Translations under genes and position numbers: made by a program
Notes under the pieces: model-generated
Database searches by the model: none
What the model saw: only the letters and a program-made list of their open reading frames with translations
Told to the model about the DNA's origin: nothing
Assembly: GCA_041659805.1 (NCBI GenBank)
Contig: JBAZXP010000001.1
Location: forward strand, 64,589 to 128,588
DNA: 64,000 nt
Reading direction: 5' to 3'
Origin: Microgenomates group bacterium
GTDB lineage: Bacteria; Patescibacteriota; Microgenomatia; Daviesbacterales; UBA10151
Part shown: one piece after another, positions 31,881 through 63,345 of the stretch
Position numbering within the stretch: position 1 is the first letter of the stretch
Layout of the letters: every line of letters starts with the position of its first letter

Positions 31881-31981
31881 AAGTATGGGAAGGCCGCATC
31901 TTCACAGCCACTGCAATTTCGCCGAGTCTATCCTCAAGACAGTTCCTAAGTCGTTCTACCTTTCGTGCGGGTCTGAACTCC

Positions 31982-33290: not shown

Positions 33291-33327
<37 letters not shown>

Positions 33328-33893
33328 AAGGAATTTCACATCCTTTAACACTTAAAGTTCATTTAGGGACCTTAGCTGTCGGTCTGGGTTGTTTCCCTCA
33401 GGACCGCTCCGCTTAGCCGGATCGGACTGACTCCTGTTACACACGTTAGTATTCGGAGTTTGATTGGATTGACAGTCTTACGACCATCAGATCCATCCAG
33501 TGCTCTACCCCTAACGTGATTGCGCAGGGCTATACCTCAATATATTTCGGGGAGAACCAGCTATCTCCGAGTTCGATAGGCATATCACCTCTAACCACAC
33601 CTCATCCTAGACTATTGATACAGTCACAAGTTCGGGCCTTCCCCGCCTTTTACAGCAGGTTCACCCTGGACATGGTTAGCTCACTCGGTTTCGGGTCTGC
33701 CATATTCTCCTAAATCGCCCGGTTAGGGCTCGCTTTCACTACGCCTACAAACATTACTGTTCTTAGACTTGGAGAATAAGACAACTCACCGGTTCATTCT
33801 TCAAAAGGCACACGGTTCCCTGAATTAAATTCAGGGTTCCGCAGCTTGACAACATACGGTTTCAGGTACTATTTCACTGAGCGTTCCGCTCTT

Positions 33894-33933
<40 letters not shown>

Positions 33934-39797: not shown

Positions 39798-39868
39798 AAT
39801 CCCTTTTTTCCTTTTGGCGAGATGGCGAATCAGCATAACGCGGTCGTCTGCAAAACGACTATTGGCGG

Positions 39869-42292: not shown

Positions 42293-43576
42293 GCGGTGTG
42301 TACAAGAGGCGAGAACGTATTCACCGCGACCTGCTGATTCGCGATTACTAGCAATTCCGACTTCATGAGGTCGAATTTCAGACCTCAATCTGAACTGGGG
42401 CGAAATTTGAGAGATTAGCTTGCCGTTACCGACTTGCAACTCGTTGTTTTTCGCCATTGTAGGGTGTGTGTAGCCCAGGGTGTAAGAGCCGTGCTGACTT
42501 GACGTCATCCGCGCCTTCCTCCCCTCAAAGAGGGGCAGTTCCGCATGAATTATTTAACATACGGTGCGGGTTGCGCTCGTTATCCGACTTAACGGTACAG
42601 CTCACGCCACGAGCTGACGACAGCCATGCAGCATCTGTGCTAGTCTCCTTGCGGATTTTCCCAGTTTCTTGGGAATAGAACTCTAGCATGTCAAACCCTG
42701 GTGAGGTTTTTCGCTTTGTCTCGAATTAAACCACACGCTCCACTGCTTGTGCGCCTCCCCGTCAATTCCTTTGAGTTTTAAACTTGCGTTCGTACTCCCC
42801 AGGCGCTCTGCTTAACGCGTTAGCTTCGACACTGATCCGAAAGGACCAATATCTAGCAGAGATCGTTTACGGCTTGGACTACGCAGGTCTCTAATCTGCT
42901 TCGCTCCCCAAGCTTTCGTGCCTAAGCGTCAAGAATACACCAGATGTCTGACTACTCCTTCGGCGTTCCCGATCATATCAACACATTTCACTGCTCCATG
43001 ATCAGTTCCAACATCCTATTGTATCTTCCAGGCCGATCATATTTTGCCCGAAACCGTGGTTGAGCCACGGGCTTTCAAGCAAAATGCATCGGTCCGCCTA
43101 CGCAACACTTTACGCCCAATAAATCCGGATAACGCTTGCACCCTACGTATTACCGAGGCTTCTGGCACGTAGTTAGCAGGTGCTTATTCTTGTGGTACCG
43201 TCATAATCTTCCCACATAAAAGGAGTTTACAACCCGAGGGCCTTCAATCCTCCACGCGGCGTCGCTCGATCAGGCTTTCGCCCATTGTCGAATATTCCCA
43301 GTTGCTGCCACCCGTAGGTGTATGGGCCGTTCTCAGTCCCATTGTGGCTGACCATCCTCTCAGACCAGCTATCCGTCGTCGCCTTGGTAGGCCATTACCC
43401 CACCAACAAGCTGATAGAACGCGGGCTAATCTCAAAGCGCATTGCTGCTTTACTCTTACGAGCACATGGGAGATTACCCAACCTTTCGGCTGGCTATATC
43501 CCACTTCGAGGTATATTCCCACGCATTACTCACCCGTCCGCCGGTTATCTTGCGATCCCCTTGACTTGCATGCTTA

Positions 43577-43619
<43 letters not shown>

Positions 43620-43802
43620 AATAAAAGTGAATTTGTATCCAGCTCCACTAATAAATCAATGAAGCTTTCAACAAGCTTCACTCAAAGAATTGACAAAAGA
43701 TTATCTCAATAAATTGAGATTGCACTCTTGTTTATCGATTTACCTAGACTTGGTAAATCATTTTCCCACCACTTTTCCGGAATTAAACGCCTAAAAAGGC
43801 AT

Positions 43803-47159: not shown

Positions 47160-48092
47160 ATGGATATACAATCAGATGCTCCAAAAATAACATCTTCAAA
47201 AGTTAATAAACCAATTATTTTTATTCCCTTGATTATATTAATTTTAATTGGGGTATTTTTATATTTTAATAAACAAACTTCTCTTTTTATTGATCCTAAT
47301 ACTATTGATTTAACTAAAGGTAGGGTTATAGATTTAAAGGACAATTTTGGATTTTATATAGAACAAGCACCAGAAGTTTGTGATCAATCTAATTTAAGTA
47401 AATATTTTAAATCTTTTGTGATTCCTGGAAAGAATGGTGAAGCTACTACAAGTGGAGCAATGTCTGTTTATGGAGAAACTACCTGGAATTATATCTTGCA
47501 GGGAGAAATATCTAAAATTGAAACTAACAGCAGTGGTATTAAATATACTTTAGTTAGTGGTGAAAATAAATTAATTACACAAAGCACAAATAACACCACT
47601 ACCTTTTTAAAGAATCCTACAGCCTCACCTAGTAGTAGCTTAGTCCCAACCAAAATTAATGCTTCAACCTTTGCAATAAAAGATAAAGTATATCTGTACT
47701 ATCTAGTTAAATGTGGGGGCAATAAATCACCTCTACTCTTTTTAGAATATATTCAAAAGATTACAGCAAAACAAACCAACACCACAGCAACCAGTTCTGG
47801 ATATTTAAAAATCATGTCTGATGGTTTAGGCAATTTTTACGGACAAGTTAAAGAAAAGGGAGAAAATTATCTGATTTTAGGCAGAGGCACCCAAACTATT
47901 AAGATAATAATTCCTAATAATGTTCCAATTAATATAGTTCCTAAATCTATACTAACTTCAGACGCTGATTTAGCTAAACCACCAACCGAGAGCATATCAT
48001 TATCTTCAGTTAAAATAGGTGATTTTGTCAGTGTTACAGGTAAATATGATGGAAAATTACTAACAGCTGCTTTTATAGCTGTTACTAAATAA
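47160..48092 (+). CDS. N-terminally membrane-anchored extracytoplasmic protein (paralog A of 49775..50764)
   Basis: 310 aa with one N-terminal TM helix. Long conserved blocks are shared with the paralog (YIEQAPEVC.Q.NLS.YFKSF, SVYGETTWNY.LQGEIS.IE.N.SGIKYTLVSGENKLITQS, AIKDKV.LYYLVKCGGNK.PLLFLEYIQK). Confidence 0.55.
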   Translation: MDIQSDAPKITSSKVNKPIIFIPLIILILIGVFLYFNKQTSLFIDPNTIDLTKGRVIDLKDNFGFYIEQAPEVCDQSNLSKYFKSFVIPGKNGEATTSGAMSVYGETTWNYILQGEISKIETNSSGIKYTLVSGENKLITQSTNNTTTFLKNPTASPSSSLVPTKINASTFAIKDKVYLYYLVKCGGNKSPLLFLEYIQKITAKQTNTTATSSGYLKIMSDGLGNFYGQVKEKGENYLILGRGTQTIKIIIPNNVPINIVPKSILTSDADLAKPPTESISLSSVKIGDFVSVTGKYDGKLLTAAFIAVTK

Positions 48093-48096
48093 TTAT

Positions 48097-49713
48097 ATGA
48101 ATTTAAAAATAAAAGCTTTATTAATATTTTCGTTTTTTTCCTTGATGTTATTTGTTTACCCAAAACAAGCTCAAGCATGTGTTTATGGTCCAGACGACAT
48201 GGGATGTGGAGATCCGGAAGGAGTTTGCTGGACAGTTGATGCTGGTGGCAATTGGCATGGAGACCGTACGAGTTGTGGTCAACCTCCTCCACCACCTGAT
48301 TCCCCTGTGGTTACAGGGCATTTAAGAGATTTTTTTTATCAACCCATAGTTGGAAAAGAAGTTAGATGGACAGACAAACTCGGAAATGTCCGTAAATACT
48401 GGACAGACGCAAATGGATACTTTTCTTTTTCCAGCTGGTTAAATATATCAGGAGCTCAGCGTACAGCAGAATATGGCTCTTTCCCAAATGCTCCATGGAC
48501 ATCTAATACCTATCAGTATGAGGCTTTTAGTGCAGCCCAAAATGCTCACACATTTACAGGTATTAAACCTGGCAATTGGTATGGAGCCATGGTTGTCCGT
48601 TCAGGAATTCTTTTAGCTGCCACCCCTGATCCAACTATCATAGATTTGTGGTATAAAAATACTCCTACTGCTTCCATTAATGGTCCTACTTCTGGTTATG
48701 TTGGGACAGCATATAATTTTGCAGCTACGGGTACTGGACCAGGGATAGGAAGAGTACAAGTTTATTGGGCCAGACAGGGTGATACTTTAAGTAGCCCCAC
48801 TGCATGGACTATGGTAAATCAAGTCACTCAGTGTGCTGAAGGCCAATGGCAAAATTGTTGTGATGGAAGCAGTACCTGTACTCTTTATACAGCTTCTTTT
48901 ACCCCTCCTTCAGTAGGATCATATTATATTACTGTTAATTCTTATGCTGATTTCCATACTCCCAGCACAGTCTGTTCAGGTAACCCCTGGATTGATACTG
49001 GCCAGATCACAGGTGTGGCTAGTTGTAATTGGGGCAGTGCTACTGATTGGATATTATTTACTGCTACCAACGCTCCTGTTGATGGAGGCTGGGGTGTAAA
49101 TGGAGGATGGAGTGCTTGTTCTGCTTCTTGTGGTGGTGGGACACAAACCAGAACTTGTAATAGTCCTCCTCCTTCTAATGGTGGGCTGCAGTGTTTAAAA
49201 AATGATGGTTCCAGAGGCCTAACAGATACTCAGAGTTGTAATACACAATGTTGTGCTGTTAATGGTGGTTGGACAGCTTTTGGAGCCTGGAGTAGCTGTT
49301 CTCTAACTTGTGGTGGTGGGACACAAAGTAGAAGCAGATCTTGTACTAATCCTGCTCCTTCTTGTGGTGGGGCTGCCTGTAGTGGGTCTGCCACAGAAAC
49401 CCAAGCCTGTAATACCCAAGCCTGTCCTGTTACTGGAGGCTGGGATCATCCAGAAGATCCTGATGGAAATCCTGCCACACCTGACTGGGGTCTGTGGGGA
49501 GCTTGTTCGTCTAGCTGTGGAGGTGGTACTCAAACCAAAACAAGATATTGTAACAATCCTACACCACAAAATGGTGGTCCAGAATGCAGGAGAGGTAATG
49601 GTACATATACCACCCCTGGAGACAGAACAGAAACTGCAAGTCAAGGATGCAATAATATCCCTTGTTCAGCTTACCTCAAAACCACAGGTGGTGATGTTCA
49701 TGCTAATCAGTAA
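48097..49713 (+). CDS. secreted Cys-rich protein with three C-terminal thrombospondin type-1 (TSP1) repeats (paralog A)
   Basis: 538 aa with a signal peptide. Three repeats match the TSR consensus W..W..CS.(S/T)CGGGTQ.R.R.C..P.P.NGG..C.....C....C: GGWSACSASCGGGTQTRTCNSPPPSNGGLQC..., WTAFGAWSSCSLTCGGGTQSRSRSCTNPAPSCGGAAC...ACP, WGLWGACSSSCGGGTQTKTRYCNNPTPQNGGPEC... Confidence 0.7.
   Translation: MNLKIKALLIFSFFSLMLFVYPKQAQACVYGPDDMGCGDPEGVCWTVDAGGNWHGDRTSCGQPPPPPDSPVVTGHLRDFFYQPIVGKEVRWTDKLGNVRKYWTDANGYFSFSSWLNISGAQRTAEYGSFPNAPWTSNTYQYEAFSAAQNAHTFTGIKPGNWYGAMVVRSGILLAATPDPTIIDLWYKNTPTASINGPTSGYVGTAYNFAATGTGPGIGRVQVYWARQGDTLSSPTAWTMVNQVTQCAEGQWQNCCDGSSTCTLYTASFTPPSVGSYYITVNSYADFHTPSTVCSGNPWIDTGQITGVASCNWGSATDWILFTATNAPVDGGWGVNGGWSACSASCGGGTQTRTCNSPPPSNGGLQCLKNDGSRGLTDTQSCNTQCCAVNGGWTAFGAWSSCSLTCGGGTQSRSRSCTNPAPSCGGAACSGSATETQACNTQACPVTGGWDHPEDPDGNPATPDWGLWGACSSSCGGGTQTKTRYCNNPTPQNGGPECRRGNGTYTTPGDRTETASQGCNNIPCSAYLKTTGGDVHANQ
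48964..49634. repeat. 671-bp block identical to 51663..52333 (TSP1-repeat coding region), copy A
   Basis: Base-for-base identity was read across both copies. Identity begins at agcacagtctgttcagg and ends at acagaacagaaac, then resumes for the last ~50 bp before the stop. Confidence 0.8.
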
Positions 49714-49774: not shown

Positions 49775-50764
49775 ATGCATATTCACAAAAAAGTCAAAGC
49801 TCATATCAAACATCATTTAGAAAAAAGACATAAACATCATATGGATACTTCTTCAAAAATTAAAAAACCAATTGTTTTTGTTCCCCTATTAGTTTTAATC
49901 ATCATAATTTTAGTAGCTGCATTTTTGTATTTTAAAAAAACACCATTTCAGCTAATTTCTTCCAATACCATTGATTTAACTACAGGAAAAGTTACTGATT
50001 TAAAAGATAATCTAGGTCCTTATATTGAACAAGCTCCTGAGGTGTGTAATCAGGATAATTTAAGTGCCTATTTCAAATCGTTTACAGTTTCTATTGAAGC
50101 AGGAAAACCTACTAAAAGTGGAGCGCCATCTGTCTATGGAGAAACAACTTGGAATTATCTACTGCAGGGAGAAATTTCTAACATTGAAGCTAACAACAGT
50201 GGTATTAAATATACTTTAGTTAGTGGTGAAAATAAATTAATTACCCAATCCTTAAATAATACTGTTTCTTTTATTAAAGATATTGCTTCTTCTAGTGGTG
50301 AGTTAACCCCTAAAGTTGTTAATGCTTCTACTTTTGCTATAAAAGATAAAGTTTTTTTATACTACTTAGTTAAATGTGGGGGTAATAAACCTCCTCTGCT
50401 CTTTTTAGAATATATTCAAAAAGCAGCTATTGCATCCCAGCAACCTTCAACAGTTGCTACCAGTTCAGGTGGATTGAGAACCAGAAGTAATAATTGGCAA
50501 GGCTTTAGAGGTACAGTAAAAGAAAAAGGAATAAACTTCTTAGTTTTAATAGGAGGAGGACAAACAATGAAAGTTGAGATTGGTAATAATATCCACTTAC
50601 GGGTAATCGATGAGGCTGAATCTTTGAAAAACCCAGATCTTTACTCTAAACAACCACCACAGGAAACATCAATTTCTGCAGTAAAAATTGGTGAAACAGT
50701 TGATGCAACAGGAGTGATTGATGGAGTAATATTTAAAGCTATGTCTGTTCTTATTATTAGATAA
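49775..50764 (+). CDS. N-terminally membrane-anchored extracytoplasmic protein (paralog B)
   Basis: 329 aa. Same architecture and conserved blocks as 47160..48092. Confidence 0.55.
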   Translation: MHIHKKVKAHIKHHLEKRHKHHMDTSSKIKKPIVFVPLLVLIIIILVAAFLYFKKTPFQLISSNTIDLTTGKVTDLKDNLGPYIEQAPEVCNQDNLSAYFKSFTVSIEAGKPTKSGAPSVYGETTWNYLLQGEISNIEANNSGIKYTLVSGENKLITQSLNNTVSFIKDIASSSGELTPKVVNASTFAIKDKVFLYYLVKCGGNKPPLLFLEYIQKAAIASQQPSTVATSSGGLRTRSNNWQGFRGTVKEKGINFLVLIGGGQTMKVEIGNNIHLRVIDEAESLKNPDLYSKQPPQETSISAVKIGETVDATGVIDGVIFKAMSVLIIR

Positions 50765-50768
50765 AACT

Positions 50769-52412
50769 ATGAATTTAAAAATCAAAACTATAATAATATT
50801 GTTAGCTTTTTTGATTTTTCAGCTAACTTCTCCTAAATTGACTTTTGCTCAATTAAATGAATGTCCTGCTGCTGGATGTGGTTCTTGCGCTCCGTCTGGA
50901 TATGCAGGTGATGCCTGTGGCTCTGGAACTGCTTCTTGTTCAGATGGTAATTGTAATTCTTGGTCTGAATCTTGCTGCTCTACAGGAGGAGCTGCCCCAC
51001 CCTCCTCGCCTGTAGTAGCTGGTTATTTAAAGGATTATTTTTATAACGTTTTACCTGGAAGAGAAGTAAGATGGACTGATAGTCTGGGAAACGTTCGTAA
51101 ACGATGGACCAATGCTAGCGGAGGATATTATTATTCTAGCTGGGCAAATATATCAGGAACAGATCGTTCCAATGAATTAACTGATGGAAGATCCAGCACT
51201 CAGGCCTATGAAGCATACACTGCAACCCAAAACCCCCATACACTTACCGGTATTTTACCATCAGGATGGTTAGGGGTAATGATTCCCTATTCAGGAACTA
51301 CAGCAATTCAATTAGCTGCTACACCTGACCCTACTTTAGTAGATTTATGGTATAAAAATACTCCTACTGCTTCCATTAATGGTCCTACTTCTGGTTATGT
51401 TGGGACAGCATATAATTTTGCAGCTACGGGTACTGGACCAGGGATAGGAAGGGTACAAATTTATTATGCTAATACAAGCGCTACTCTAAGCAATCCGGCT
51501 GCATGGACTTTGGTAAATCAAGTCAACAAGTGTGCTGCCGGCCAATGGCAAAATTGTTGTGACGGAAGCAGTACCTGTACTCTTTACAATGCTTCTTTTA
51601 CTCCTCCCGCAACAGGACAATATTATATTGCAGTAAATTCCTATGCTGATTATGTTAACCCAAGCACAGTCTGTTCAGGTAACCCCTGGATTGATACTGG
51701 CCAGATCACAGGTGTGGCTAGTTGTAATTGGGGCAGTGCTACTGATTGGATATTATTTACTGCTACCAACGCTCCTGTTGATGGAGGCTGGGGTGTAAAT
51801 GGAGGATGGAGTGCTTGTTCTGCTTCTTGTGGTGGTGGGACACAAACCAGAACTTGTAATAGTCCTCCTCCTTCTAATGGTGGGCTGCAGTGTTTAAAAA
51901 ATGATGGTTCCAGAGGCCTAACAGATACTCAGAGTTGTAATACACAATGTTGTGCTGTTAATGGTGGTTGGACAGCTTTTGGAGCCTGGAGTAGCTGTTC
52001 TCTAACTTGTGGTGGTGGGACACAAAGTAGAAGCAGATCTTGTACTAATCCTGCTCCTTCTTGTGGTGGGGCTGCCTGTAGTGGGTCTGCCACAGAAACC
52101 CAAGCCTGTAATACCCAAGCCTGTCCTGTTACTGGAGGCTGGGATCATCCAGAAGATCCTGATGGAAATCCTGCCACACCTGACTGGGGTCTGTGGGGAG
52201 CTTGTTCGTCTAGCTGTGGAGGTGGTACTCAAACCAAAACAAGATATTGTAACAATCCTACACCACAAAATGGTGGTCCAGAATGCAGGAGAGGTAATGG
52301 TACATATACCACCCCTGGAGACAGAACAGAAACAGCCTCTCAATCCTGTAATACTCAGGCTTGTTCAGCTTACCTCAAAACCACAGGTGGTGATGTTCAT
52401 GCTAATCAGTAA
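50769..52412 (+). CDS. secreted Cys-rich protein with three TSP1 repeats (paralog B)
   Basis: 547 aa with a signal peptide. The C-terminal ~270 aa are identical to paralog A (DNA identical over 671 bp). The N-terminal region is diverged but homologous (SPVVAGYLKDYFYN..EVRWTD.LGNVRK.WT). Confidence 0.7.
   Translation: MNLKIKTIIILLAFLIFQLTSPKLTFAQLNECPAAGCGSCAPSGYAGDACGSGTASCSDGNCNSWSESCCSTGGAAPPSSPVVAGYLKDYFYNVLPGREVRWTDSLGNVRKRWTNASGGYYYSSWANISGTDRSNELTDGRSSTQAYEAYTATQNPHTLTGILPSGWLGVMIPYSGTTAIQLAATPDPTLVDLWYKNTPTASINGPTSGYVGTAYNFAATGTGPGIGRVQIYYANTSATLSNPAAWTLVNQVNKCAAGQWQNCCDGSSTCTLYNASFTPPATGQYYIAVNSYADYVNPSTVCSGNPWIDTGQITGVASCNWGSATDWILFTATNAPVDGGWGVNGGWSACSASCGGGTQTRTCNSPPPSNGGLQCLKNDGSRGLTDTQSCNTQCCAVNGGWTAFGAWSSCSLTCGGGTQSRSRSCTNPAPSCGGAACSGSATETQACNTQACPVTGGWDHPEDPDGNPATPDWGLWGACSSSCGGGTQTKTRYCNNPTPQNGGPECRRGNGTYTTPGDRTETASQSCNTQACSAYLKTTGGDVHANQ
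51663..52333. repeat. 671-bp block identical to 48964..49634, copy B
   Basis: See copy A. Offset between copies is 2699 bp. Confidence 0.8.
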
Positions 52413-54029: not shown

Positions 54030-55163
54030 CTAAACTAATGTATTTGAAAAATCAAATTCTTTCTTAAACACTTTTTCAACGCTTTTAATTACATACTCAA
54101 CTTCTTGGTTTGTCATAGTTGACCAAACAGGCAAGCACAGGTGTGTTGTACAAAAATGATCAGCTTTGGGAAATTTTTTATTCTTAAACATTGTTTTAAA
54201 AATTGGTTGTCGGTGAATCGGTATATCATATACTCCACCACCTAAATACACCTGATGTTCTTGTTCCAGGGTCTTTTTTATCTGCTGACAAATTTTTGCA
54301 GTAGGAAATTGAACAATAAATTTATATCCACTTGGAATCATATGCTCTGAAGCTGTATAAATCCTGATCTGGTTATATTTCCCTAGTACAGAAGCATATT
54401 TTTTCATAATTTCATTTCTGCGTTTAACGAATTTTGCCAAATGTTTAAGCTGATGAAAACCTAAAACAGCCTGTAATTCACTCATCCTCCAGCTATTTCC
54501 CCAAGCTACGTTCTGCTTTGTTACAGGATCTTTTCCCTGATCTCTTAAAATTAATATTTTTTGATAATCATTTTTATTATCTGTAACTATCATTCCTCCT
54601 TCTCCGGAAGTTATAACTTTAGTCGGAAAAAATGAGAAAGCCGCAGCATGACCAAAATTCCCTGCTGGTTGTCCTTTTAAAGTTGCTCCATGAGCATGGG
54701 CAGCATCTTCAATTAAAAACAACCCTTTGCTTTCACAATAACTTTTCAAATCATCCAGTTCATTTGATAAATAACCTCCAATATGAACAAAGATTATTCC
54801 TACAGTGGAGATATCCACGGCATTTTTTATGTCATCCAAAGATGGATAAATTCCACCATCAACTAATTTAAGCTTACCTCCGGCAAAAAGCACAGCTGCA
54901 GCTGTTGCATAATTTGTATTCGTCTGAACTATTACTGTTTTTCCTTTAACATCCTTTACTCTTAACAATATCTCCAGCGCTGTAGTCCCTGAATTAACTG
55001 CTACAGCATACTTTCTTTTTGTTAATAAAGAGAACTGATCTTCAAATCTTTTAGTCATGTTTCCTAAACTCAATTGACCACTACGTAAAACATGCTTTAT
55101 GTCTGAAGCTATACTGTTGATGTCGGTTTCGGAAAAATGAATTTTTAGTGGAGGAACGTGCAT
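54030..55163 (-). CDS. DegT/DnrJ/EryC1/StrS-family PLP-dependent sugar aminotransferase
   Basis: 377 aa. AVNSGTTALEILL...IIFVHIGGY..ELDDLKSYCESKGLFLIEDAAHAHGA...SFFPTKVITSGEGGMIVT includes the typical Lys-containing SFFPTK motif. Confidence 0.8.
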   Translation of the reverse strand: MHVPPLKIHFSETDINSIASDIKHVLRSGQLSLGNMTKRFEDQFSLLTKRKYAVAVNSGTTALEILLRVKDVKGKTVIVQTNTNYATAAAVLFAGGKLKLVDGGIYPSLDDIKNAVDISTVGIIFVHIGGYLSNELDDLKSYCESKGLFLIEDAAHAHGATLKGQPAGNFGHAAAFSFFPTKVITSGEGGMIVTDNKNDYQKILILRDQGKDPVTKQNVAWGNSWRMSELQAVLGFHQLKHLAKFVKRRNEIMKKYASVLGKYNQIRIYTASEHMIPSGYKFIVQFPTAKICQQIKKTLEQEHQVYLGGGVYDIPIHRQPIFKTMFKNKKFPKADHFCTTHLCLPVWSTMTNQEVEYVIKSVEKVFKKEFDFSNTLV

Positions 55164-55176
55164 TTAAAAAAATATT

Positions 55177-56235
55177 CTATTTATTGTCTTTTTTCCAGTC
55201 CCCCTCAGCTATTTGTAATTTCTTTTTTAGAGGTTCCCACCATGCTCTGTTATCTTTATACCACTGAATTGTCTGTCTCATTCCTTCCTCAAATTCAACT
55301 TCAGGAGTCCAACCTAATTCGGTTCTTATTTTGGAAGAATCCAATATGTACCTTCTGTCGTGACCTGGTCGATCTTGCACATACTTTTTCATTGAAGCAG
55401 GTTGACCAAGTTCATTAAGTATAATATCAGTAATTTCTTCTACACTTTTTTCAATTCCGCTACCCACATTATACGTCTCGCCTATTTTTCCTTTTTGAAT
55501 TACTAAATCAACAGCCCGACAATGATCCATTACAAAAAGCCATTCTCTTCTATTTTGACTGCTGGTGTAAATTGGCACTTGTTGACCATCCATTAAGTTT
55601 GTCACAAAAAGAGGAATTAATTTTTCCGGAAATTGATATGGCCCATAATTGTTAGAACAATTTGTGGTCGTAACTGGTAATTTATACGTTTCCCAATATG
55701 CTCTAACTGCCAAATCCGAGCCTGCTTTAGATGCATTATAAGGAGTGCGCGGGCGGAGAGGTGAGTTTTCAGAAAAACTTTCATCAGAATCCAATGGTAA
55801 ATCACCATACACCTCACAAGTAGAAATATGATGGAATCTGGCTACTTTATTCTGACGGCAGACTTCAAGCAAAGTTTGGGTTCCAATAACATTAGTCTTG
55901 AAAAATACACTTGGGTTTATTACTGCCCAACTGTTATGACTTTCAGCTGCAAAATTGACAATTACATCCGGTTTGAATTCTTTGATTGTTTCGTCTACTA
56001 CCTTAAAATCTGCGATATCACCTTGAACAAAGCTATAATGAGGATTACTTTTTATGTCTGTTAAACTATCCAAATTGCCTGCATAAGTCAAAGCATCAAA
56101 ATTCAGCACGTCATCCTTAGGATATTTTTCCAACCAATATCTAATAAAGTTAGATCCTATAAAACCAGCTCCACCTGTAACTATTATTTTCATTCTTTCA
56201 GTCTCTAAATTCATATTTAATTCTTTTTCGCTCAC
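55177..56235 (-). CDS. rfbB: dTDP-glucose 4,6-dehydratase
   Basis: MKIIVTGGAGFIGSNFIRYWL...FDALTYAGNLDSL...FHHISTCEVYGDL...YNASKAGSDLAVRAY. Short-chain dehydratase with YxxxK and characteristic RmlB blocks. Confidence 0.85.
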   Translation of the reverse strand: MSEKELNMNLETERMKIIVTGGAGFIGSNFIRYWLEKYPKDDVLNFDALTYAGNLDSLTDIKSNPHYSFVQGDIADFKVVDETIKEFKPDVIVNFAAESHNSWAVINPSVFFKTNVIGTQTLLEVCRQNKVARFHHISTCEVYGDLPLDSDESFSENSPLRPRTPYNASKAGSDLAVRAYWETYKLPVTTTNCSNNYGPYQFPEKLIPLFVTNLMDGQQVPIYTSSQNRREWLFVMDHCRAVDLVIQKGKIGETYNVGSGIEKSVEEITDIILNELGQPASMKKYVQDRPGHDRRYILDSSKIRTELGWTPEVEFEEGMRQTIQWYKDNRAWWEPLKKKLQIAEGDWKKDNK

Positions 56236-56272
56236 TTTGTCAAGCTGTACTATATTTAGAAAAAAACCAAAT

Positions 56273-57487
56273 TTAGATAAAATACCGGTCAGAAATCTCC
56301 ATACCAGATGATTCTTTCAAATCCTCTAATACGTCTAGATCCATCTTTCTAGCTTGCAATGCTAGATTAGTAATAACATTTATATTATGGCGAAGACAAT
56401 ATAGTGAACAATCTTTCTCACAATTCAAATTTTTTATTACCAGTCTTCGTTTGTTACTTTCCCAAATTTCTTTTAAAGAGCTCTTCAAAATATCACCAAC
56501 CCTCAATTTTTTCGCTCCCCTCCAATTAGGACAAACATAAACACCGTGAGGAGTAATAAGTGGTACAAACTGTTGTGCTGCACAATATGAATATTTTTTA
56601 TTTTGGTTTAACATTTTTTTGTTTAGAGCTGCTGTTAATGATCCAGTAACTAAAACACTAAATTTATCTGTTTCTTCTTTTTGCGCCATAGATAACTCTC
56701 TCCTTATTTTTGGTAATAGTGCATCATTGTAAAATTGAATAATTCGTCGATTTGATTTTAAAGGAGTATATTCCGGTTTAAATTGAATAAAATTGCATCC
56801 GATTTTTTTTGCAATTTTAGTCGCTATACTGATATCTGAAATGTTTTCCTTCATAACAACAAAAGAAACACCAACAGTGCCAGATGCTGCTTTAGCTAGA
56901 CTCTTGGTGTTGGCAATAATTTGGTCAAAAAAATCCTTTCCATGCATCTTTTGATAAGTTATAGCAGTACCTGCATCCCAAGAAACTCTAGTCCAGGAGC
57001 ATGTCTTACCAATAATTGGCACAACTTTGTCTAATGCTATCCCATTGGTATTAATTGCATAATCTATCCCTAATTTAACTGTTTTTTCTATAATCTCGTT
57101 TATTCCGGGATGAATCAGAGGTTCTCCGCCCCCAAAATATACGATACTTAAAATACCCATACTTTTAAATTCATCCAAAAGATCCAACATTCTTTTTGTT
57201 GGAATCTCTTTCCCGAAACGGGCATATTTATCAATACACCAAGGACAATCTAGATTACATCTATTGGTTAAGTCAACTAATACTGCAAACGGAGGAGAGG
57301 AATAATCATCAGAGGCAAGTTTATCTATTGTTTCTTTAAGTCTTGGTCTTAGCTCATCTTGAAGTAACTTAGTAAGCAAGCTTTCTGTTGTTTTTCCTGA
57401 TTTAATTGAAATCTTAGGCTTATACATTATTACGGTCAAATGTGAGCACATGCTACTAAAAGCACGAACAAAAATCAACAATGACAA
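56273..57487 (-). CDS. radical SAM enzyme, probably with a SPASM-like C-terminal Cys cluster
   Basis: 404 aa. CNLDCPWC (CxxxCxxC) near the N-terminus. C-terminal Cys-rich region CPNWRG...CEKDCSLYCLRHN. Confidence 0.7.
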   Translation of the reverse strand: MSLLIFVRAFSSMCSHLTVIMYKPKISIKSGKTTESLLTKLLQDELRPRLKETIDKLASDDYSSPPFAVLVDLTNRCNLDCPWCIDKYARFGKEIPTKRMLDLLDEFKSMGILSIVYFGGGEPLIHPGINEIIEKTVKLGIDYAINTNGIALDKVVPIIGKTCSWTRVSWDAGTAITYQKMHGKDFFDQIIANTKSLAKAASGTVGVSFVVMKENISDISIATKIAKKIGCNFIQFKPEYTPLKSNRRIIQFYNDALLPKIRRELSMAQKEETDKFSVLVTGSLTAALNKKMLNQNKKYSYCAAQQFVPLITPHGVYVCPNWRGAKKLRVGDILKSSLKEIWESNKRRLVIKNLNCEKDCSLYCLRHNINVITNLALQARKMDLDVLEDLKESSGMEISDRYFI

Positions 57488-57536
57488 TTGTAAGATCGAG
57501 TTGAATTGGTTTATCTTACTGTGCTACATTTAAATT

Positions 57537-57923
57537 ATGCGAAAGCATGTTTTTTTTGCCTTTAGAATTCTGGTGTTCCTGCTAATACTACCTTTACTTG
57601 GAGTTGCTTTTGCCCCACCTGTTAAAATAAATGCTGCATGCGATACTGCTACCGGCTCACAAATTCAGGTAAGTGGTGGATTAATCTCTGCAATTAGTGT
57701 CAGTAATTTCAGTGCTTCTTCATCTGCTGATGTCAGCTGTGTGACAGGTGCTCCTGCAGCTATCCCCCAGTTTTCTATCCCAACTTACGATGATCCGAAT
57801 GATCCAAATAATATGATAAAAAATTATTTTAATCAGGCAAAAAGTACATATAATAAAAAAACTCTCCAAGGAGATCAAACCCAAAATTCAGCCAGCGATC
57901 CCATTAATTTAATTTCTTACTAA
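57537..57923 (+). CDS. small secreted protein (signal peptide)
   Basis: 128 aa. N-terminus MRKHVFFAFRILVFLLILPLLGVAFA followed by a Ser/Ala-rich sequence. Confidence 0.4.
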   Translation: MRKHVFFAFRILVFLLILPLLGVAFAPPVKINAACDTATGSQIQVSGGLISAISVSNFSASSSADVSCVTGAPAAIPQFSIPTYDDPNDPNNMIKNYFNQAKSTYNKKTLQGDQTQNSASDPINLISY

Positions 57924-57965
57924 AAAATGTTTGACTTTTAAGCTTGATTATGTCTACATTAAATT

Positions 57966-59483
57966 ATGCAAAAATTTCTGTCTAAATTAACACATAAAAC
58001 AATAATCCTAATGTTAGCCTTGATTATTGTAGGACTTGCTACTCCTGTAATTAACAAACAATTTAATATTGGTCCCAAATTAAGCAGGATGGGTGGTGAA
58101 GTTGCTGGAGTATTGATAGAAAATACCACTGAAAAGTTTTTGGGTACTGCCAACATAGTTGGAGCTGTAGGTACAGCCCCCTATCAAACAATAGGAGGTG
58201 AAGTTTCTATTGCAGGTGCGATACGTATGGATACCGGTGGATATATAATCGGAGAACCAACTTATGGAGTCAGACTTAATAACTCTTTAAACACATTAAA
58301 TTTAATCGTTGCTAAAAATGACGGAACTGTTTATATGCCCAGCGGTAAGGTTGGTATAGGGATAACTAGTCCAGGGTATCAACTTGATGTCAAAGGGGCT
58401 AATGATACAGAACTCATCTCTTGGAAAAATGCTGGTGGATACCTATTGGGCACTCTAGGCAGGGCAACAAATGGAGCATACAATTCAGGAGGATTACAAA
58501 TAAAATCAGATGGCACAACAACACAGGTTTATTTAACCGGTAGCGGGAACTCTTATATAAATCAAGGTAAATTTGGTATTGGAACAGCAACACCTACAGA
58601 CAAACTGAATATTAATCAGAATTGGTTTGATAACAGCACAACTGATTGGGGAGGTGGTATTAAAATGGAAGGAAACAATCCTACTATTGGTTTTTGGGAA
58701 ACAGATAATGGTGCCCATCGATGGATGTGGCATCTTTCTAGTGACATTATGAACCTTTATAGAAGACCTGTCGGAGGCGGATGGGAAAGGAAATTATATG
58801 TAGAGAATAATGGGAATGTTACTGCTACAAGTTTTACTGGTAATTTAAATGGTAATGCCACTTATGCTACCACAGCTGGTAGTGCTCCTGCTTCTGACGT
58901 ACCCTCACAATCAAAAAATTTGAATCAATGGGTAAACACTGATTCTGCGCCTACTTTTGCTTATCTAAATGGAACTTCAATTCTTACGGAACCATATTGG
59001 TTCCATCATCAAGGCGATGCAAATTTAGTTATAAGAAATAGGTATGATGGTTTTGTCATGTGGGCTGCGTCTTACACCGGCACTGCCTGGAAATCAGATA
59101 TCAGACTAAAGGAAAATATCAAACCGCTTGGTGACTCTCTGGATAAATTAAATCAACTCCAATCTGTTAGTTTTGACTGGAAAGAACATAAACCTGCTCC
59201 CTATCATGATAATGCTCCTTTAGGTTTTATTGCTCAGGAGTTAGAAAAAATATATCCGGAATTAGTTTATGAAGATAGTCTAACAGGTATGAAAATGATT
59301 GATTATGGTGGCTTAACCGCACCAATAATCAAATCTATCCAGGAACTGGATAATAAAATTTCGTATCTTTGGAATATGATAACCTCTGCTTCTGAAAGAA
59401 TAGATGCTCTGACCAAACAAGTCAACAGCCAACAAAACGAAATTAATGCCCTGAAAGCTGAAATAGAAAATTTAAAGAAATAA
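57966..59483 (+). CDS. tail-fibre-like protein with C-terminal intramolecular chaperone (Peptidase S74) domain and coiled coil
   Basis: 505 aa. N-terminal anchor. G.(V/F)GIGT..P..(L/K)(D/N)(V/I) motifs. C-terminus SDIRLKENIKPLGDSLDKLNQLQSVSFDWKEH...GFIAQELEKIYPELVYED...MIDYGGLTAPIIKSIQELDNKI matches the S74 consensus. Coiled-coil tail. Confidence 0.7.
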   Translation: MQKFLSKLTHKTIILMLALIIVGLATPVINKQFNIGPKLSRMGGEVAGVLIENTTEKFLGTANIVGAVGTAPYQTIGGEVSIAGAIRMDTGGYIIGEPTYGVRLNNSLNTLNLIVAKNDGTVYMPSGKVGIGITSPGYQLDVKGANDTELISWKNAGGYLLGTLGRATNGAYNSGGLQIKSDGTTTQVYLTGSGNSYINQGKFGIGTATPTDKLNINQNWFDNSTTDWGGGIKMEGNNPTIGFWETDNGAHRWMWHLSSDIMNLYRRPVGGGWERKLYVENNGNVTATSFTGNLNGNATYATTAGSAPASDVPSQSKNLNQWVNTDSAPTFAYLNGTSILTEPYWFHHQGDANLVIRNRYDGFVMWAASYTGTAWKSDIRLKENIKPLGDSLDKLNQLQSVSFDWKEHKPAPYHDNAPLGFIAQELEKIYPELVYEDSLTGMKMIDYGGLTAPIIKSIQELDNKISYLWNMITSASERIDALTKQVNSQQNEINALKAEIENLKK

Positions 59484-59487
59484 GGTT

Positions 59488-60384
59488 ATGGGCAAAATTT
59501 TAACTGTATTTATTACTGTCATCGTTTGTACTGTGGTGGTTGTTGGCGCTTACTTTTTTATCTACAAGAAAACCGGCGCTCCTTTACTCCAAAGCACTTC
59601 TCCTAATGTTCTATATCTTACTAACCCTGTTTTATCTTTTTCAGGAAAAATAGAATCAATCAAGGAAAATACTTTTACAGTCAGTCAGGAGATGATTTTA
59701 AATCAAGCCGTATCCTTACAAACAAATCCCAACCAAACAACTAAAGCACAAACAAAAAAAATAACATACCAAGTACTGGTAACTGAAAAAACAATGATTA
59801 TTCAATCCACAAATAATGTTCCTTACTTGCTGAAACAAACTACCTCACTCGCCTCTCCTTCCGCAACCTCAAATAAATTAACCAACAAAGATCTGAAAAC
59901 AGGACAATATATTACAGTAACCTCCAATACAGATCTTCGAACCCTTTTAGGAAACCAATTTGAGGCAAATTATATTAGTATTACCCCTAATATATTCTCA
60001 ATCATTGGTAAAATTAACAAAATTAATGGTAATGAGATTAGTGTCTTAGGAACTGCCAATCCAGCTGCTTTTCCCACTTCAACTAATCTTCAAGCTTCTA
60101 AAGAAAAGGAATATACAATTATCATTGATCAAAATACAGAAATATCAGGAAGTATAGCAACAAACAACCCTACTATACCTTCAAAACCTGAAAAATATTC
60201 ATTATCAGACCTTAAAAAAGACCTTCAGGTAATGATCTACGCTGAAGGTGATGTTAATTCAAACCAGAAAACAACAGCTTTAAGAGTCAGCCCCCTCTTT
60301 ATAACCAACCTCCCTCTTACTCAATTACTCCAATCATCATCACCAGCTCAATCTACAAAATCCGGTACACAAAAACCAAAATGA
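59488..60384 (+). CDS. membrane-anchored Ser/Thr-rich protein
   Basis: 298 aa. N-terminal TM helix FITVIVCTVVVVGAYFFIY. Low-complexity T/S/N-rich ectodomain. Confidence 0.4.
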   Translation: MGKILTVFITVIVCTVVVVGAYFFIYKKTGAPLLQSTSPNVLYLTNPVLSFSGKIESIKENTFTVSQEMILNQAVSLQTNPNQTTKAQTKKITYQVLVTEKTMIIQSTNNVPYLLKQTTSLASPSATSNKLTNKDLKTGQYITVTSNTDLRTLLGNQFEANYISITPNIFSIIGKINKINGNEISVLGTANPAAFPTSTNLQASKEKEYTIIIDQNTEISGSIATNNPTIPSKPEKYSLSDLKKDLQVMIYAEGDVNSNQKTTALRVSPLFITNLPLTQLLQSSSPAQSTKSGTQKPK

Positions 60385-61301
60385 GCCTAAATAAAAGTTT
60401 ACTTGGATTAATTCTGGCGCTGTTTATTTTTCCAACAATAGCACATGCAGAGATTGCTACAGTAAAAGACTGGATTGGATTATTTCCTATAAACGTAACT
60501 GGGTATAGCAAAGCTGATACTTATGCCGGTTGTCCGAGTTTAGACCCAATCAATAAATATTGTTGGTTCTATACCAGTAGTCCAACTTGTAACCAAGTAG
60601 CTGGTACAGTGCCAAAACTGGCTGATAATCCTGCTACTTGCTCTTTTACTTTTAATCCTCTTCCCCCTGTTGGTTATTATGTGTTCCGCTTAATGGCTAA
60701 TGACGAACAAACTATCGACGCTTTAATTGCCACATCAAGACAAATGTATACTAATGCCACTGCTTCTGCAACGCTCACGCCAACCCCAACCCCTGTTGCA
60801 GCCAATGGTAAACTTTACCGTATTACAGGAGACTTAACCTTAAATAGTGATATTACAGTCTATGAAACAGGAGTTATTTTTGTTGATGGTAATCTTACTA
60901 TAAATACTAATATTCTTAACAACAATGCAACAAAGGGGCTTGTTTTTGTAGTCAAGGGTGAAATCTTTATTCAACGTGATGTAACAAAGGTTAATGCTTT
61001 TTTGATTGCCCACGGAAAAAACTCCAGCGGAGATGACATAACTCCGTTTTGTACGGCATACGATCCAGTTGATGGTTGTAATGATTACGCAGTTAATGCA
61101 ACCCGTAAATACTTGGAGATTAACGGATCGATTATTTCTTTAAACCAAAATACTGCCTACCCTGCGAATTTTGCCAGAAAAAAATATGATGCAATATTGG
61201 CTGACAAGCCAGCTGAAACTATTAATTATGAAGCAAAATATTTAGTAATCATGAAGGATATTTTTTCCAGAGACTTAAGAATCTGGAGAGAAGTTCAATA
61301 G
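60381..61301 (+). CDS. secreted protein, possibly beta-helical
   Basis: 306 aa with a signal peptide. Repetitive LTLNSDITVYETGVIFVDGNLTINTNIL...VFVVKGEIFIQ segment. Confidence 0.4.
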   Translation: MSLNKSLLGLILALFIFPTIAHAEIATVKDWIGLFPINVTGYSKADTYAGCPSLDPINKYCWFYTSSPTCNQVAGTVPKLADNPATCSFTFNPLPPVGYYVFRLMANDEQTIDALIATSRQMYTNATASATLTPTPTPVAANGKLYRITGDLTLNSDITVYETGVIFVDGNLTINTNILNNNATKGLVFVVKGEIFIQRDVTKVNAFLIAHGKNSSGDDITPFCTAYDPVDGCNDYAVNATRKYLEINGSIISLNQNTAYPANFARKKYDAILADKPAETINYEAKYLVIMKDIFSRDLRIWREVQ

Positions 61302-61363: not shown

Positions 61364-62128
61364 TTATTTCCCAAAATTTCTTTTTTGATCCTGGTACCAT
61401 TTTATGGCTTTTTTTAATTCTTCTGGGGTAAAATCAGGCCAAAGCACTTTCGTAAAATATAATTCAGAATATGCAGTTTGCCAAAGTAAAAAATTTGAAA
61501 GTCTCACATAACCCCCTGTTCTGATAACCAAATCAGGATCAGATTGTCCGCTGGTATATAAATGTCTTGAGATTATCTCATCATTGATTTTATTCACATC
61601 CACACCTTCTTTAATTAATTCTTTAATGGCTTCAACAATCTCTTTTTTACCCCCATAATTTAAAGCAACATTTACTTTTATCGCTTCATTCTTTATATAA
61701 ACTTTTTTCAAATCTTCAATCACTTTTCTGACTGAGCCAGGAAGACCTTCAAGCTCCCCCAAGACATTGACCCTTACCCCTTTTTCAGCTAACTTTTTAA
61801 CCTTATTTTTAAATCCAAACTTAAGCAAATGAAACAATCCAGAAACCTCCCTTTTAGCCCTTTCCTTAATATTTTCTGTGGAGAGCGCATAAACTGTTAA
61901 AGTTTTAACTCCCATTTTGGCTGCTGGTTCTATTAAATTCTCCAATGCATCTGCTCCTGCTTCATGACCTTTACCTTCAGGCAGTCCTTTTAATCTCGCC
62001 CATCTGCGATTTCCATCCATAATTATGGCAATATGTTGAGGAACATTTTCCGTACTCATACCCGCAAGATTAACAAATATTTCCGTAATCTTCAATCCGC
62101 TGTTACAATACATGAATGAAAATTGCAA
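61364..62128 (-). CDS. uppS: undecaprenyl-diphosphate synthase (isoprenyl transferase). The true start is probably the internal Met (MSTENV...), which gives an end near 62059.
   Basis: HIAIIMDGNRRWA...GHEAGADALENLIE...VKTLTVYALSTENIKER...DLVIRTGGYVRLSNFLLWQTAYSELYFTKVLWPDF are the canonical cis-prenyltransferase motifs. Confidence 0.85.
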   Translation of the reverse strand: MQFSFMYCNSGLKITEIFVNLAGMSTENVPQHIAIIMDGNRRWARLKGLPEGKGHEAGADALENLIEPAAKMGVKTLTVYALSTENIKERAKREVSGLFHLLKFGFKNKVKKLAEKGVRVNVLGELEGLPGSVRKVIEDLKKVYIKNEAIKVNVALNYGGKKEIVEAIKELIKEGVDVNKINDEIISRHLYTSGQSDPDLVIRTGGYVRLSNFLLWQTAYSELYFTKVLWPDFTPEELKKAIKWYQDQKRNFGK

Positions 62129-63345
62129 TCATGGGCGCAGGGTTCACCGGGCTGACTGCTGCTTTAAGGTTAGCTAAGTTAGGACATCAGATCACTGTTT
62201 TTGAAAAGGAATCTACTGTGGGAGGCCTTGCTGCGGGTTTTAAAGAAAAAGGTTGGGATTGGTTCGTGGATAAAACATATCATCACCTTTTTACCAATGA
62301 TATATATGCCATACATTTAGCCCGCGAGGTAAACCAAAAACTGATTACCAAACAGCCGGAAACTGCAGTCTTGGTAGATAATAAAATGTCTGCTTTTGAT
62401 TCTCCGATTACTCTATTAAAATTTTCCCATCTGACGGTTTTCAACCGTTTCAGAGTTGGGATTTGTACTTTTTATTTAAAATACTTAAGTTCAGCGGAAA
62501 CTTTTGAAAGCCGTTTCGCCCTTGATTGGTTAAATAAATTTATGGGTGAAAGTGCCACAAAAACGATCTGGGATCCTCTGTTTGAAGGTAAATTCGGATC
62601 ACAAAAATATACTATCTCCCTCACCTGGTTTTGGGCCAGAATTAAAAAAAGGACTCAATCATTGGTATACCCTGAAGGAGGATTCCAACATTTTGCAGAG
62701 AAAATCTCACAAGAAATTACTGACCTGGGCGGTAAAATTATCTTGGACACTGAAATCAAAACCCTTAAAAAAGGTTTTGATAAAACAATCATTACCTTAC
62801 CGACACCAACTTTTACCAAAATTACAAAATTGCCAAAACCATATCAAAAAAGGCTTGATTCTATTCCCCATTTATCTGCATTAAATTTAATCATAAAACT
62901 TAAAAAACCTTTTTTTACAAACGGCACTTACTGGTTAAATATTACCGATAAATCCTTCCCCTTTTTAGTAATGGCGGAACATACAAATTTTATGAATAAA
63001 AAATATTATAACAATCAGCACATCTTATATATTGGCTGTTATTTACCGGCAGACCACCCTTACCTAAAAATGTCTGGCGAAAAGCTATTTAAAGTATTTG
63101 ATCCTTACCTCAAAAAAATCAATCCAAATTATGCCCTATGCCCCAAACCTTTAAACCTGTTCACTTTTTCCAATGCTCAACCGATAGTTACACCGAATCA
63201 CAAAACAAAAATACCTGCGTTCAAAACCCCACTTAAGAATGTTTTTTTGGCTAATTTAGATATGGTTTACCCTTGGGACAGGGGTGTAAATTACGCTATA
63301 AATTTAGGGGAAGAAGTTGCTAAAATGGTTAATGGGGAAAAATAA
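62116..63345 (+). CDS. FAD/NAD(P)-binding oxidoreductase (amine oxidase / phytoene desaturase-like family)
   Basis: MKIAIMGAGFTGLTAALRLAKLGHQITVFEKESTVGGLAAGF is a Rossmann dinucleotide-binding motif with the GG signature. 409 aa. Confidence 0.6.
   Translation: MKIAIMGAGFTGLTAALRLAKLGHQITVFEKESTVGGLAAGFKEKGWDWFVDKTYHHLFTNDIYAIHLAREVNQKLITKQPETAVLVDNKMSAFDSPITLLKFSHLTVFNRFRVGICTFYLKYLSSAETFESRFALDWLNKFMGESATKTIWDPLFEGKFGSQKYTISLTWFWARIKKRTQSLVYPEGGFQHFAEKISQEITDLGGKIILDTEIKTLKKGFDKTIITLPTPTFTKITKLPKPYQKRLDSIPHLSALNLIIKLKKPFFTNGTYWLNITDKSFPFLVMAEHTNFMNKKYYNNQHILYIGCYLPADHPYLKMSGEKLFKVFDPYLKKINPNYALCPKPLNLFTFSNAQPIVTPNHKTKIPAFKTPLKNVFLANLDMVYPWDRGVNYAINLGEEVAKMVNGEK

Follow-up and report, generated by a model that had tools for sequence, protein, structure and literature searches.

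The 64,000-nucleotide stretch analysed here (hereafter the window), taken from contig JBAZXP010000001.1 of a Microgenomates group bacterium, contains between positions 54030 and 57487 a cassette of three genes that encode a radical S-adenosylmethionine (SAM) enzyme, an extended short-chain dehydrogenase/reductase (SDR) resembling the dTDP-glucose 4,6-dehydratase RmlB, and a pyridoxal 5'-phosphate (PLP)-dependent sugar aminotransferase of the DegT/DnrJ/EryC1 family (Table 1). The three co-directional genes of a preliminary description of this DNA were recovered, with open reading frames (ORFs) located exactly at 54030–55163, 55177–56235 and 56273–57487, all on the minus strand. Transcription proceeds from the radical SAM gene through the RmlB-like gene to the DegT gene, with intergenic gaps of 37 and 13 nucleotides; the gene upstream, which starts at 57537 on the plus strand, is divergent, and the gene downstream, for a LysM protein and ending at 53982, is convergent. 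Because of the short gaps and this orientation of both neighbours, the three genes constitute one operon. The longest ORF for the radical SAM protein comprises 404 residues, counted from a TTG at 57487. Since relatives span 378–393 residues, however, translation most likely begins with the ATG at 57427, which yields a predicted protein of 384 residues beginning with MYKPK. The RmlB-like gene may also start internally, at 56193 (MKIIVTGG). The 109 bp that separate the radical SAM gene from its divergent neighbour harbour no conserved small ORF and presumably contain the promoter of the operon; a promoter scan of this region returned only matches at chance level. The G+C content of the cassette is 0.34, compared with 0.38 for the window.

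The radical SAM protein has few close relatives. Only about 30 (46–90% identity) were found among 5.8 billion proteins, and a metagenome scan with the protein from the window added only three more. All three genes are present in each of the 10 homologous loci whose contigs reach beyond both ends of the trio (L001, L003, L005, L007, L008, L009, L016, L095, L130 and L131), corresponding to eight independent flank contexts (L016 matches L005, and L004 matches L003); in an eleventh locus, L132, the radical SAM gene is followed by genes for a DegT protein and a NUDIX hydrolase and then by a transposase gene. The flanks of the trio are unrelated between loci, and the genes occur in two orders, radical SAM–RmlB–DegT or radical SAM–DegT–RmlB. 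As all 10 loci carry the trio in spite of these unrelated flanks and two gene orders, the linkage is functional and far beyond chance. In the closest long relative of the window cassette (L007, 78–85% identity), a DDE transposase gene separates the radical SAM gene from the RmlB-like gene, and in L095 the whole trio sits between rplO (encoding L15) and secY within an otherwise conserved ribosomal-protein operon. Locus L009 has a G+C content of 54% and adjoins genes for nonribosomal peptide synthetases, so that the cassette also occurs outside the Candidate Phyla Radiation (CPR). The identities of the three proteins to those of the window are rank-correlated across the loci (rho 0.73–0.97), as expected for a unit that is inherited together. 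Synteny conserved across unrelated contexts supports the conclusion that the three genes are a conserved, portable and dedicated nucleotide-sugar pathway unit. Our reading, which is tentative, is that the cassette is a self-contained operon for an unusual dTDP-linked amino-deoxyhexose, made by a carbonyl-forming radical elimination or oxidation on a dTDP-sugar, with transamination as the next step. The preliminary description had proposed a pathway resembling that of DesI and DesII; the dedicated nucleotide-sugar unit stands, but the radical SAM enzyme does not belong to the DesII family and the aminotransferase is closer to QdtB and DesV than to DesI.

A Pfam scan of the radical SAM protein gave PF04055 with 71.5 bits and the SPASM domain PF13186 with 21.5 bits, exactly at the threshold, and no NCBIfam model reached its cutoff (best 92 bits vs 380). 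Seven cysteines are invariant in 18 aligned relatives, namely those of the CX3CX2C motif that starts 57 residues from the N-terminus (C57-x3-C61-x2-C64) and four in the C-terminal part (C282-x16-C299 and C340-x3-C344). All seven are kept in 129–131 of 132 family representatives with 21–45% identity. The C-terminus itself (...DRYFI) is conserved as well, a terminal Phe-[Ile/Leu/Val] being present in 124 of the 132. The preliminary description had noted a SPASM-like, cysteine-rich tail; an auxiliary-cluster cysteine motif is indeed present, but with only four invariant cysteines it is twitch-like and not a seven-cysteine SPASM domain, only the first half of the SPASM motif (C-x12-G-x3-C) and the terminal C-x3-C being retained. 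The sequence offers the cysteine ligands for one auxiliary [4Fe-4S] cluster that characterize a twitch domain, and the AlphaFold (AF2) model (predicted local distance difference test score, pLDDT, 92.3) is confident in this region. The C-terminal domain would therefore fit a twitch-like half SPASM, predicted to hold one fully Cys-ligated auxiliary cluster. BtrN has an auxiliary cluster with four cysteine ligands, and we take the spacing C-x16-C...C-x3-C in the cassette protein to resemble that of this four-cysteine twitch cluster.

When a profile of the family was run against the sequences in the PDB, MoaA (4.5e-15), BlsE (1e-14), SuiB (2.5e-14) and CteB (2.4e-12) were followed by anSME (4e-11, full length) and by DesII and BtrN (1e-5 each, core only). 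On DesII the profile scores 28 bits and covers only residues 44–200, with more than 25 other radical SAM enzymes ahead, and phmmer with the radical SAM protein found no DesII match in the PDB at E<0.01; orthology with DesII is rejected on these grounds. A class B cobalamin-dependent methyltransferase is likewise unlikely because the Pfam scan shows no B12-binding domain, and the C-methyltransferase put forward as an alternative in the preliminary description thus found no confirmation.

The best names returned by NCBIfam and Foldseek (W-cofactor maturase, MftC, PqqE, SuiB and SkfB) would suit a peptide-modifying SPASM/twitch maturase for a ribosomally synthesized and post-translationally modified peptide (RiPP) or a cofactor, next to which the sugar genes would be found incidentally. 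This explanation is effectively refuted. The scores lie far below the family cutoffs, Pfam detects neither a RiPP recognition element (RRE) nor a PqqD domain, and the sole conserved neighbours are the two sugar enzymes. Across 12 loci no small ORF (15–110 residues) is conserved around the radical SAM gene outside the trio, the conserved ones being shadows inside it. A gene for a peptide substrate is therefore absent, and the combination of a SPASM maturase with a nearby precursor peptide, named in the preliminary description as the observation that would speak against a sugar pathway, is not what the loci contain.

The middle gene clearly encodes a protein of the RmlB clade, judged by its matches to TIGR01181, the NCBIfam model for dTDP-glucose 4,6-dehydratase (453.4 bits, cutoff 365.1), and to solved proteins (Bacillus anthracis RmlB, 6bi4, 377 bits; DesIV, 346 bits; TunA, 3vps, 87 bits). 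To this extent the earlier assignment as dTDP-glucose 4,6-dehydratase holds, but the aspartate that serves as general acid is replaced by cysteine (I-S-T-C-E-V-Y-G vs S-T-D-E-V-Y-G). The threonine, the glutamate base and YxxxK are kept, such that the protein lacks the [ST]-D-E acid/base motif of dTDP-glucose 4,6-dehydratases and carries T-C-E...YxxxK, the motif of TunA. All solved RmlB proteins compared have T-D-E. The sequence STCEVYG is shared by the cassettes of the window, L003, L007, L009, L095 and L131 (group 1), and a second cassette type (group 2; L001, L005, L008, L016 and L130) has STIEVYG. The variants without aspartate are also altered in the ESHVDRS and T-R-C-x-N-N-Y-G-P motifs. 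We rejected the idea that the loss of the aspartate is specific to the cassette or co-evolved with the radical SAM enzyme: the variants are clade-wide, with STCEVYG in 113 of the 120 nearest 90% clusters (P0218–P0337) and STIEVYG in 117 of 120 (P0338–P0457), and they far outnumber the approximately 30 radical SAM relatives. In these organisms, T-C-E and T-I-E proteins probably represent the ordinary kinds of 'RmlB'. A scan of viral contigs yielded 34 RmlB relatives, in 32 of which the canonical aspartate could be read and none of which had T-C-E or T-I-E; a degenerate DNA pattern for HISTIEVYG gave no match, and matches on plasmids were all below 60% identity.

In a review of nucleotide-sugar dehydratases, [ST]DE with aspartate as the acid is given for dTDP-glucose 4,6-dehydratases, [ST]SE for GDP-mannose dehydratase, which works with glutamate alone, and TCE only for TunA, a 5,6-dehydratase that makes an exo-glycal for tunicamycin. 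The cysteine of TunA presumably steers the reaction towards the exo-glycal, and the proposed partner of TunA is the radical SAM enzyme TunB. A cassette working along these lines would use the RmlB-like enzyme without aspartate to release a 5,6-ene sugar (exo-glycal or 4-keto-5,6-ene), the radical SAM enzyme to add a carbon radical (adenosyl or other substrate radical) at C6, and the DegT enzyme to aminate the resulting chain-extended or branched sugar. The pairing of a T-C-E...YxxxK SDR with a radical SAM enzyme speaks for this possibility, as do some genetic environments. A NUDIX hydrolase gene lies directly beside the trio in five of 11 loci (L005 and L016 being one context; Table 1), and in L005/L016 the flanks contain a FemX-like transferase, an undecaprenyl-diphosphatase-like PAP2 protein, a sugar-1-phosphate nucleotidyltransferase and the NUDIX protein, so that the classes of the pyrophosphatase TunN (NUDIX), the phosphatase TunL (PAP2) and the acyltransferase TunC (FemX-like) of the tun cluster are echoed. 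NUDIX genes are also found beside more distant members of the radical SAM family in Streptomyces and Kitasatospora, which are not located in tun clusters. We nevertheless regard a TunA/TunB-like route as very improbable. The dehydratase belongs to the RmlB clade and is no TunA orthologue (377 vs 87 bits), most of the clade-wide T-C-E and T-I-E enzymes work without this radical SAM partner, GDP-mannose dehydratase manages 4,6-dehydration with a single glutamate, and tunicamycin needs no aminotransferase. Moreover, the SDRs encoded next to members of the wider radical SAM family were searched for T-C-E and none had it. Were such a route true, ultra-small CPR bacteria would make a chain-extended or branched amino sugar with a minimal set of genes, and the T-C-E and T-I-E 'RmlB' clades, at present annotated as ordinary dTDP-glucose 4,6-dehydratases, would carry a wrong name and form another product.

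The DegT protein matches PF01041 with 292.6 bits over residues 17–362 and scores below every NCBIfam equivalog cutoff. Its PLP Schiff-base lysine lies in ...AAFSFFPTK..., and the group 2 counterpart aligns with the lysine of QdtB in ...FSFYPAK.... Among solved relatives, QdtB (3frk, 153.7 bits) ranks before DesV (2oga, 106) and DesI (2po3, 78) for the protein from the window, and QdtB (151.8) ranks before WlaRG (5u1z, 129) and DesV (106) for that of group 2; BtrS-type transaminases are detectable relatives (82–94 bits). WlaRG is a dTDP-3-keto-sugar 3-aminotransferase. As QdtB, a 3-aminotransferase, is the best solved relative in both cassette types, the comparison suggests that the DegT enzyme acts on a 3-keto sugar.

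This bears on the strict logic of DesIV, DesI and DesII in desosamine formation by Streptomyces venezuelae, in which dTDP-4-keto-6-deoxyglucose from the RmlB enzyme would be aminated at C4 by the DegT enzyme and then deaminated by the radical SAM enzyme to dTDP-3-keto-4,6-dideoxyglucose, and which is a special case of the reading given above. The same three enzyme classes (RmlB-clade dehydratase, DegT-family aminotransferase and radical SAM enzyme) are tightly linked in the cassette, DesII is among the top Foldseek matches, and a 3-keto product would suit an aminotransferase related to 3-aminotransferases. We consider this route rather unlikely all the same, for the radical SAM protein lies in another branch of the superfamily, outside the DesII family by sequence, and has an invariant four-cysteine auxiliary motif in a tail that DesII lacks according to the preliminary description. 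DesI is a poorer match to the aminotransferase than QdtB or DesV (the DesI model of NCBIfam gives 125 bits, cutoff 650), and the scheme would demand amination at C4 as well as at C3 from a single aminotransferase. The cassette differs further from the desosamine pathway in the cysteine that takes the place of the acid aspartate in the dehydratase, in having no equivalents of DesV or DesVI linked to it, and in its hosts, which are mostly CPR bacteria and not actinomycete macrolide producers.

The wider radical SAM family is large. In an exhaustive profile search, 2,417 clusters (50% identity) scored E<1e-30, and in a scan of species-representative genomes relatives at 30–36% identity appeared in Lachnospiraceae, many Proteobacteria, Kitasatospora/Streptomyces and others. 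None of four members tested reaches any NCBIfam cutoff. Within five genes of the radical SAM gene in 66 genome loci, the most frequent neighbour encodes an aldehyde dehydrogenase (42 loci, directly downstream in 33), followed by ATP-grasp (35), DegT (32) and ArnC-like family 2 glycosyltransferase (GT2) proteins (26), AMP-ligases (13) and a small acyl carrier protein (ACP)-like ORF of 84 residues with no Pfam match (9); NeuB is encoded in some loci. In loci L017–L093 (e.g., L021), the radical SAM gene is followed by genes for an aldehyde dehydrogenase and an ATP-grasp protein, the latter being replaced in some cases by the small ACP-like ORF plus an AMP-ligase gene, and DegT, ArnC-like GT2 and small ORFs of 110–150 residues also occur there. 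This neighbourhood looks like an undescribed glycan-modification system, and our literature searches retrieved no description either of the family or of a glycan system made up of radical SAM, aldehyde dehydrogenase and ATP-grasp proteins. On the Streptomyces plasmid pSVL1, the family member is encoded beside a second SPASM protein, UDP-galactopyranose mutase, WbqC, DegT, an NTP-transferase, a MurG-like transferase and a NUDIX hydrolase, and members from Kitasatospora have NUDIX, GHMP kinase and sugar ABC transporter genes as neighbours. Nucleotide-sugar and glycan chemistry is thus the consistent setting of the family.

Whether it is the aldehyde dehydrogenase of the wide family or the aminotransferase of the cassette, the partner of the radical SAM enzyme consumes a carbonyl. 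A carbonyl-forming step is favoured because of these partners and because the nearest characterized relatives convert a carbinol carbon to a carbonyl. The same observation bears on a radical epimerase like NeoN or HygY, which would invert an unactivated stereocentre of a dTDP-amino sugar after transamination. Twitch-type radical SAM enzymes include sugar epimerases, the architecture with a single auxiliary cluster would fit, and a radical route would be chemically sensible at this stage, the ring protons being no longer acidic after amination. Against it stand the constant aldehyde dehydrogenase partner of the wider family, which points to carbonyl formation, and the lack of an extra conserved cysteine as hydrogen-atom donor, given that C143, C211 and C336 are not conserved across 132 family members. 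We therefore judge an epimerase improbable.

For the carbonyl-forming pathway we infer the substrate, the order of steps, the type of reaction and the product as follows. The RmlB-like SDR would oxidize dTDP-glucose at C4 and probably dehydrate it across C5/C6, yielding a 4-keto sugar, and the DegT enzyme would transaminate a keto group. The radical SAM enzyme would use the 5'-deoxyadenosyl radical to abstract hydrogen at a carbinol position of the sugar, where a new carbonyl would then arise, either through beta-elimination of the neighbouring NH3 or OH as in lyases of the DesII or BlsE type, which we slightly favour, or through one-electron oxidation via the auxiliary [4Fe-4S] cluster as in dehydrogenations of the BtrN or anSME type. 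BtrN and anSME, whose auxiliary clusters are fully ligated, work as dehydrogenases, and DesII works as a deaminase. The carbonyl formed in this way would most plausibly lie at C3 and could be aminated by the same QdtB-like aminotransferase or by an enzyme encoded elsewhere, so that the pathway would end in a 3-amino-3,4,6-trideoxy-hexose or a diamino-trideoxy-hexose.

Several known systems provide parallels. BlsE is a radical 1,2-diol dehydratase, and for its homologue MilG a 4'-oxidation/3'-dehydration has been proposed, after which the 4'-oxo product would be aminated by the PLP aminotransferase MilD; in BlsE/BlsH (blasticidin S) and MilG/MilD (mildiomycin) alike, a radical SAM enzyme turns the vicinal diol of a nucleobase-linked pyranose into a keto-deoxy sugar that a PLP enzyme aminates. 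BlsE is the best sugar-acting match of the family profile, yet it shares only 16% identity and its sequence match is confined to the core (residues 55–172); its substrate is cytosylglucuronic acid and not a nucleoside diphosphate sugar, and it has no SDR dehydratase as a partner. The pair BtrS/BtrN of 2-deoxystreptamine formation likewise combines a DegT-family aminotransferase with a twitch radical SAM dehydrogenase, but the profile score of BtrN is only 28 bits and its substrate is an aminocyclitol and not a nucleotide sugar, the keto compound being supplied in that pathway by a carbocycle synthase and not by an SDR. BtrS acts both before and after BtrN. QdtA/QdtB, which serve the formation of dTDP-3-amino-3,6-dideoxyglucose, resemble the cassette in the related aminotransferase and the RmlB-type enzyme upstream; the cassette trio, however, lacks a 3,4-ketoisomerase of the QdtA/FdtA type and has the radical SAM enzyme in its place. 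A cupin gene adjoins the trio in L003/L004 only, and L005 contains a weak FdtA-like match at a distance of 3.5 kb.

A number of points weigh against the carbonyl-forming pathway. The first step, 4,6-dehydration, is uncertain because the RmlB-like enzyme lacks the aspartate acid, and the scheme requires either an aminotransferase with double specificity or genes outside the cassette. The nucleotidyltransferase (RmlA) for which the preliminary description advised looking elsewhere did not turn up, the 42 window ORFs scanned containing no such gene and no recognizable glycosyltransferase gene adjacent to the cassette. Similarity scores, including those that place the DegT protein next to QdtB, do not reveal the regiospecificity of an aminotransferase, and in group 2 the lead of QdtB is only about 5 bits. 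The Foldseek comparison does not discriminate, as SuiB, SkfB, DesII and BlsE all match with template modelling (TM) scores of about 0.6 (DesII with E 3.6e-14 and TM 0.62–0.65; BlsE with the highest target-normalized TM, 0.69). The nearest characterized enzymes share only 13–19% identity with the radical SAM protein, and we know of no member of this family that has been characterized so far. Furthermore, relatives at about 32% identity sit in a different gene context, and their substrate may therefore differ.

Table 1. Positions of genes and other features in the window and in homologous loci (aa, amino acids; empty cells, no entry)
Feature	Sequence	Coordinates	Strand	Remarks
DegT/DnrJ/EryC1-family PLP sugar aminotransferase, 377 aa	Window	54030–55163	minus	PF01041
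RmlB-like extended SDR, 352 aa	Window	55177–56235	minus	TIGR01181
Radical SAM enzyme, 384 aa	Window	56273–57427	minus	Pfam Radical_SAM and, at threshold, SPASM
Intergenic region, 109 bp	Window	57428–57536		Between radical SAM gene and divergent gene at 57537
TMEM260-like O-mannosyltransferase domain with TPR, and two further TPR proteins	Window	16551–22603		Candidate glycosylation
YfhO-like protein	Window	22660–24459		Candidate glycosylation
Wzy_C (O-antigen ligase family) protein	Window	28148–29245		Candidate glycosylation
Giant ORF, 2115 aa	Window	3280–9627		
Giant ORF, 1949 aa	Window	10042–15891		
Protein with pilin-type N-terminal methylation motif	Window	25669–26847		
5S rRNA	Window	27631–27747		
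Fibronectin-type-III-domain protein	Window	29279–30037		
23S rRNA	Window	30629–34429		
Group I intron	Window	32117–32376		In 23S rRNA gene
Predicted tRNA	Window	39816–39889		
LAGLIDADG endonuclease ORF	Window	39869–40663		
LAGLIDADG endonuclease ORF	Window	41486–41914		
16S rRNA	Window	42234–43625		
First copy of duplicated gene pair	Window	47160–49713		310 + 538 aa
Second copy of duplicated gene pair	Window	49775–52412		329 + 547 aa
Divergent operon	Window	57537–61301		
Undecaprenyl-diphosphate synthase and flavin amine-oxidase-like genes	Window	61364–63345		Synthase on minus strand, oxidase divergent
NUDIX hydrolase	L005	11333–11872		
NUDIX hydrolase	L008	5486–6316		
NUDIX hydrolase	L016	9322–9858		
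NUDIX hydrolase	L131	2216–2680		
NUDIX hydrolase	L132	4338–4910		
NUDIX hydrolase	L167	16124–16624		
DDE transposase	L007	9401–10480		
Complete trio	L095	1321–4681		
Example of radical SAM–aldehyde dehydrogenase–ATP-grasp locus	L021	6001–7002 and neighbours		

The window has the look of a Patescibacteria (CPR) genome, and the nearest named homologues come from Falkowbacteria, Moranbacteria, Magasanikbacteria, Komeilibacteria and Portnoybacteria. The protein-glycosylation machinery that had been described as neighbouring the cassette is not close to it, the candidate genes in the window being more than 25 kb away (Table 1). The gene for a fibronectin-type-III-domain protein adjoins the Wzy_C gene in that region, and a pilin-type N-terminal methylation motif occurs in the protein encoded at 25669–26847. 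The divergent operon next to the cassette encodes a protein of 128 residues with a hydrophobic N-terminus, a Peptidase_S74 protein of 505 residues (endosialidase/tail-fibre chaperone) and two ORFs without a family match. About 4 kb from the cassette, the gene for undecaprenyl-diphosphate synthase overlaps by 13 bp the start of the flavin amine-oxidase-like gene (PRK07233, 354 bits). The 23S, 16S and 5S rRNA genes are unlinked; the first spans 3.8 kb including a group I intron, and one of the two LAGLIDADG endonuclease ORFs located between rRNA genes overlaps a predicted tRNA gene. The window further contains two giant ORFs and a tandem duplication of a gene pair, the larger protein of each pair having thrombospondin type 1 repeats (TSP_1, about 70 bits).

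The existence of two large database clades of 'RmlB' proteins without the catalytic aspartate bears on the annotation of dTDP-sugar pathways in Patescibacteria. To our knowledge, characterized radical SAM enzymes with nucleotide- or nucleoside-linked sugars as substrates are very few; they include DesII and BlsE, and TunB has only been proposed. The enzyme of the cassette belongs to a large, unnamed twitch-type family that occurs in surface-glycan and sugar-nucleotide gene clusters of many phyla, and of the settings found here for this family the cassette is the smallest and the most portable. As it has only three genes and its substrate, dTDP-glucose, is likely to be simple, it offers an unusually tractable entry to the chemistry of this family of about 2,400 clusters, and a new amino-deoxy sugar, if this is indeed the product, would enlarge the scarce knowledge of the cell-surface chemistry of CPR bacteria.

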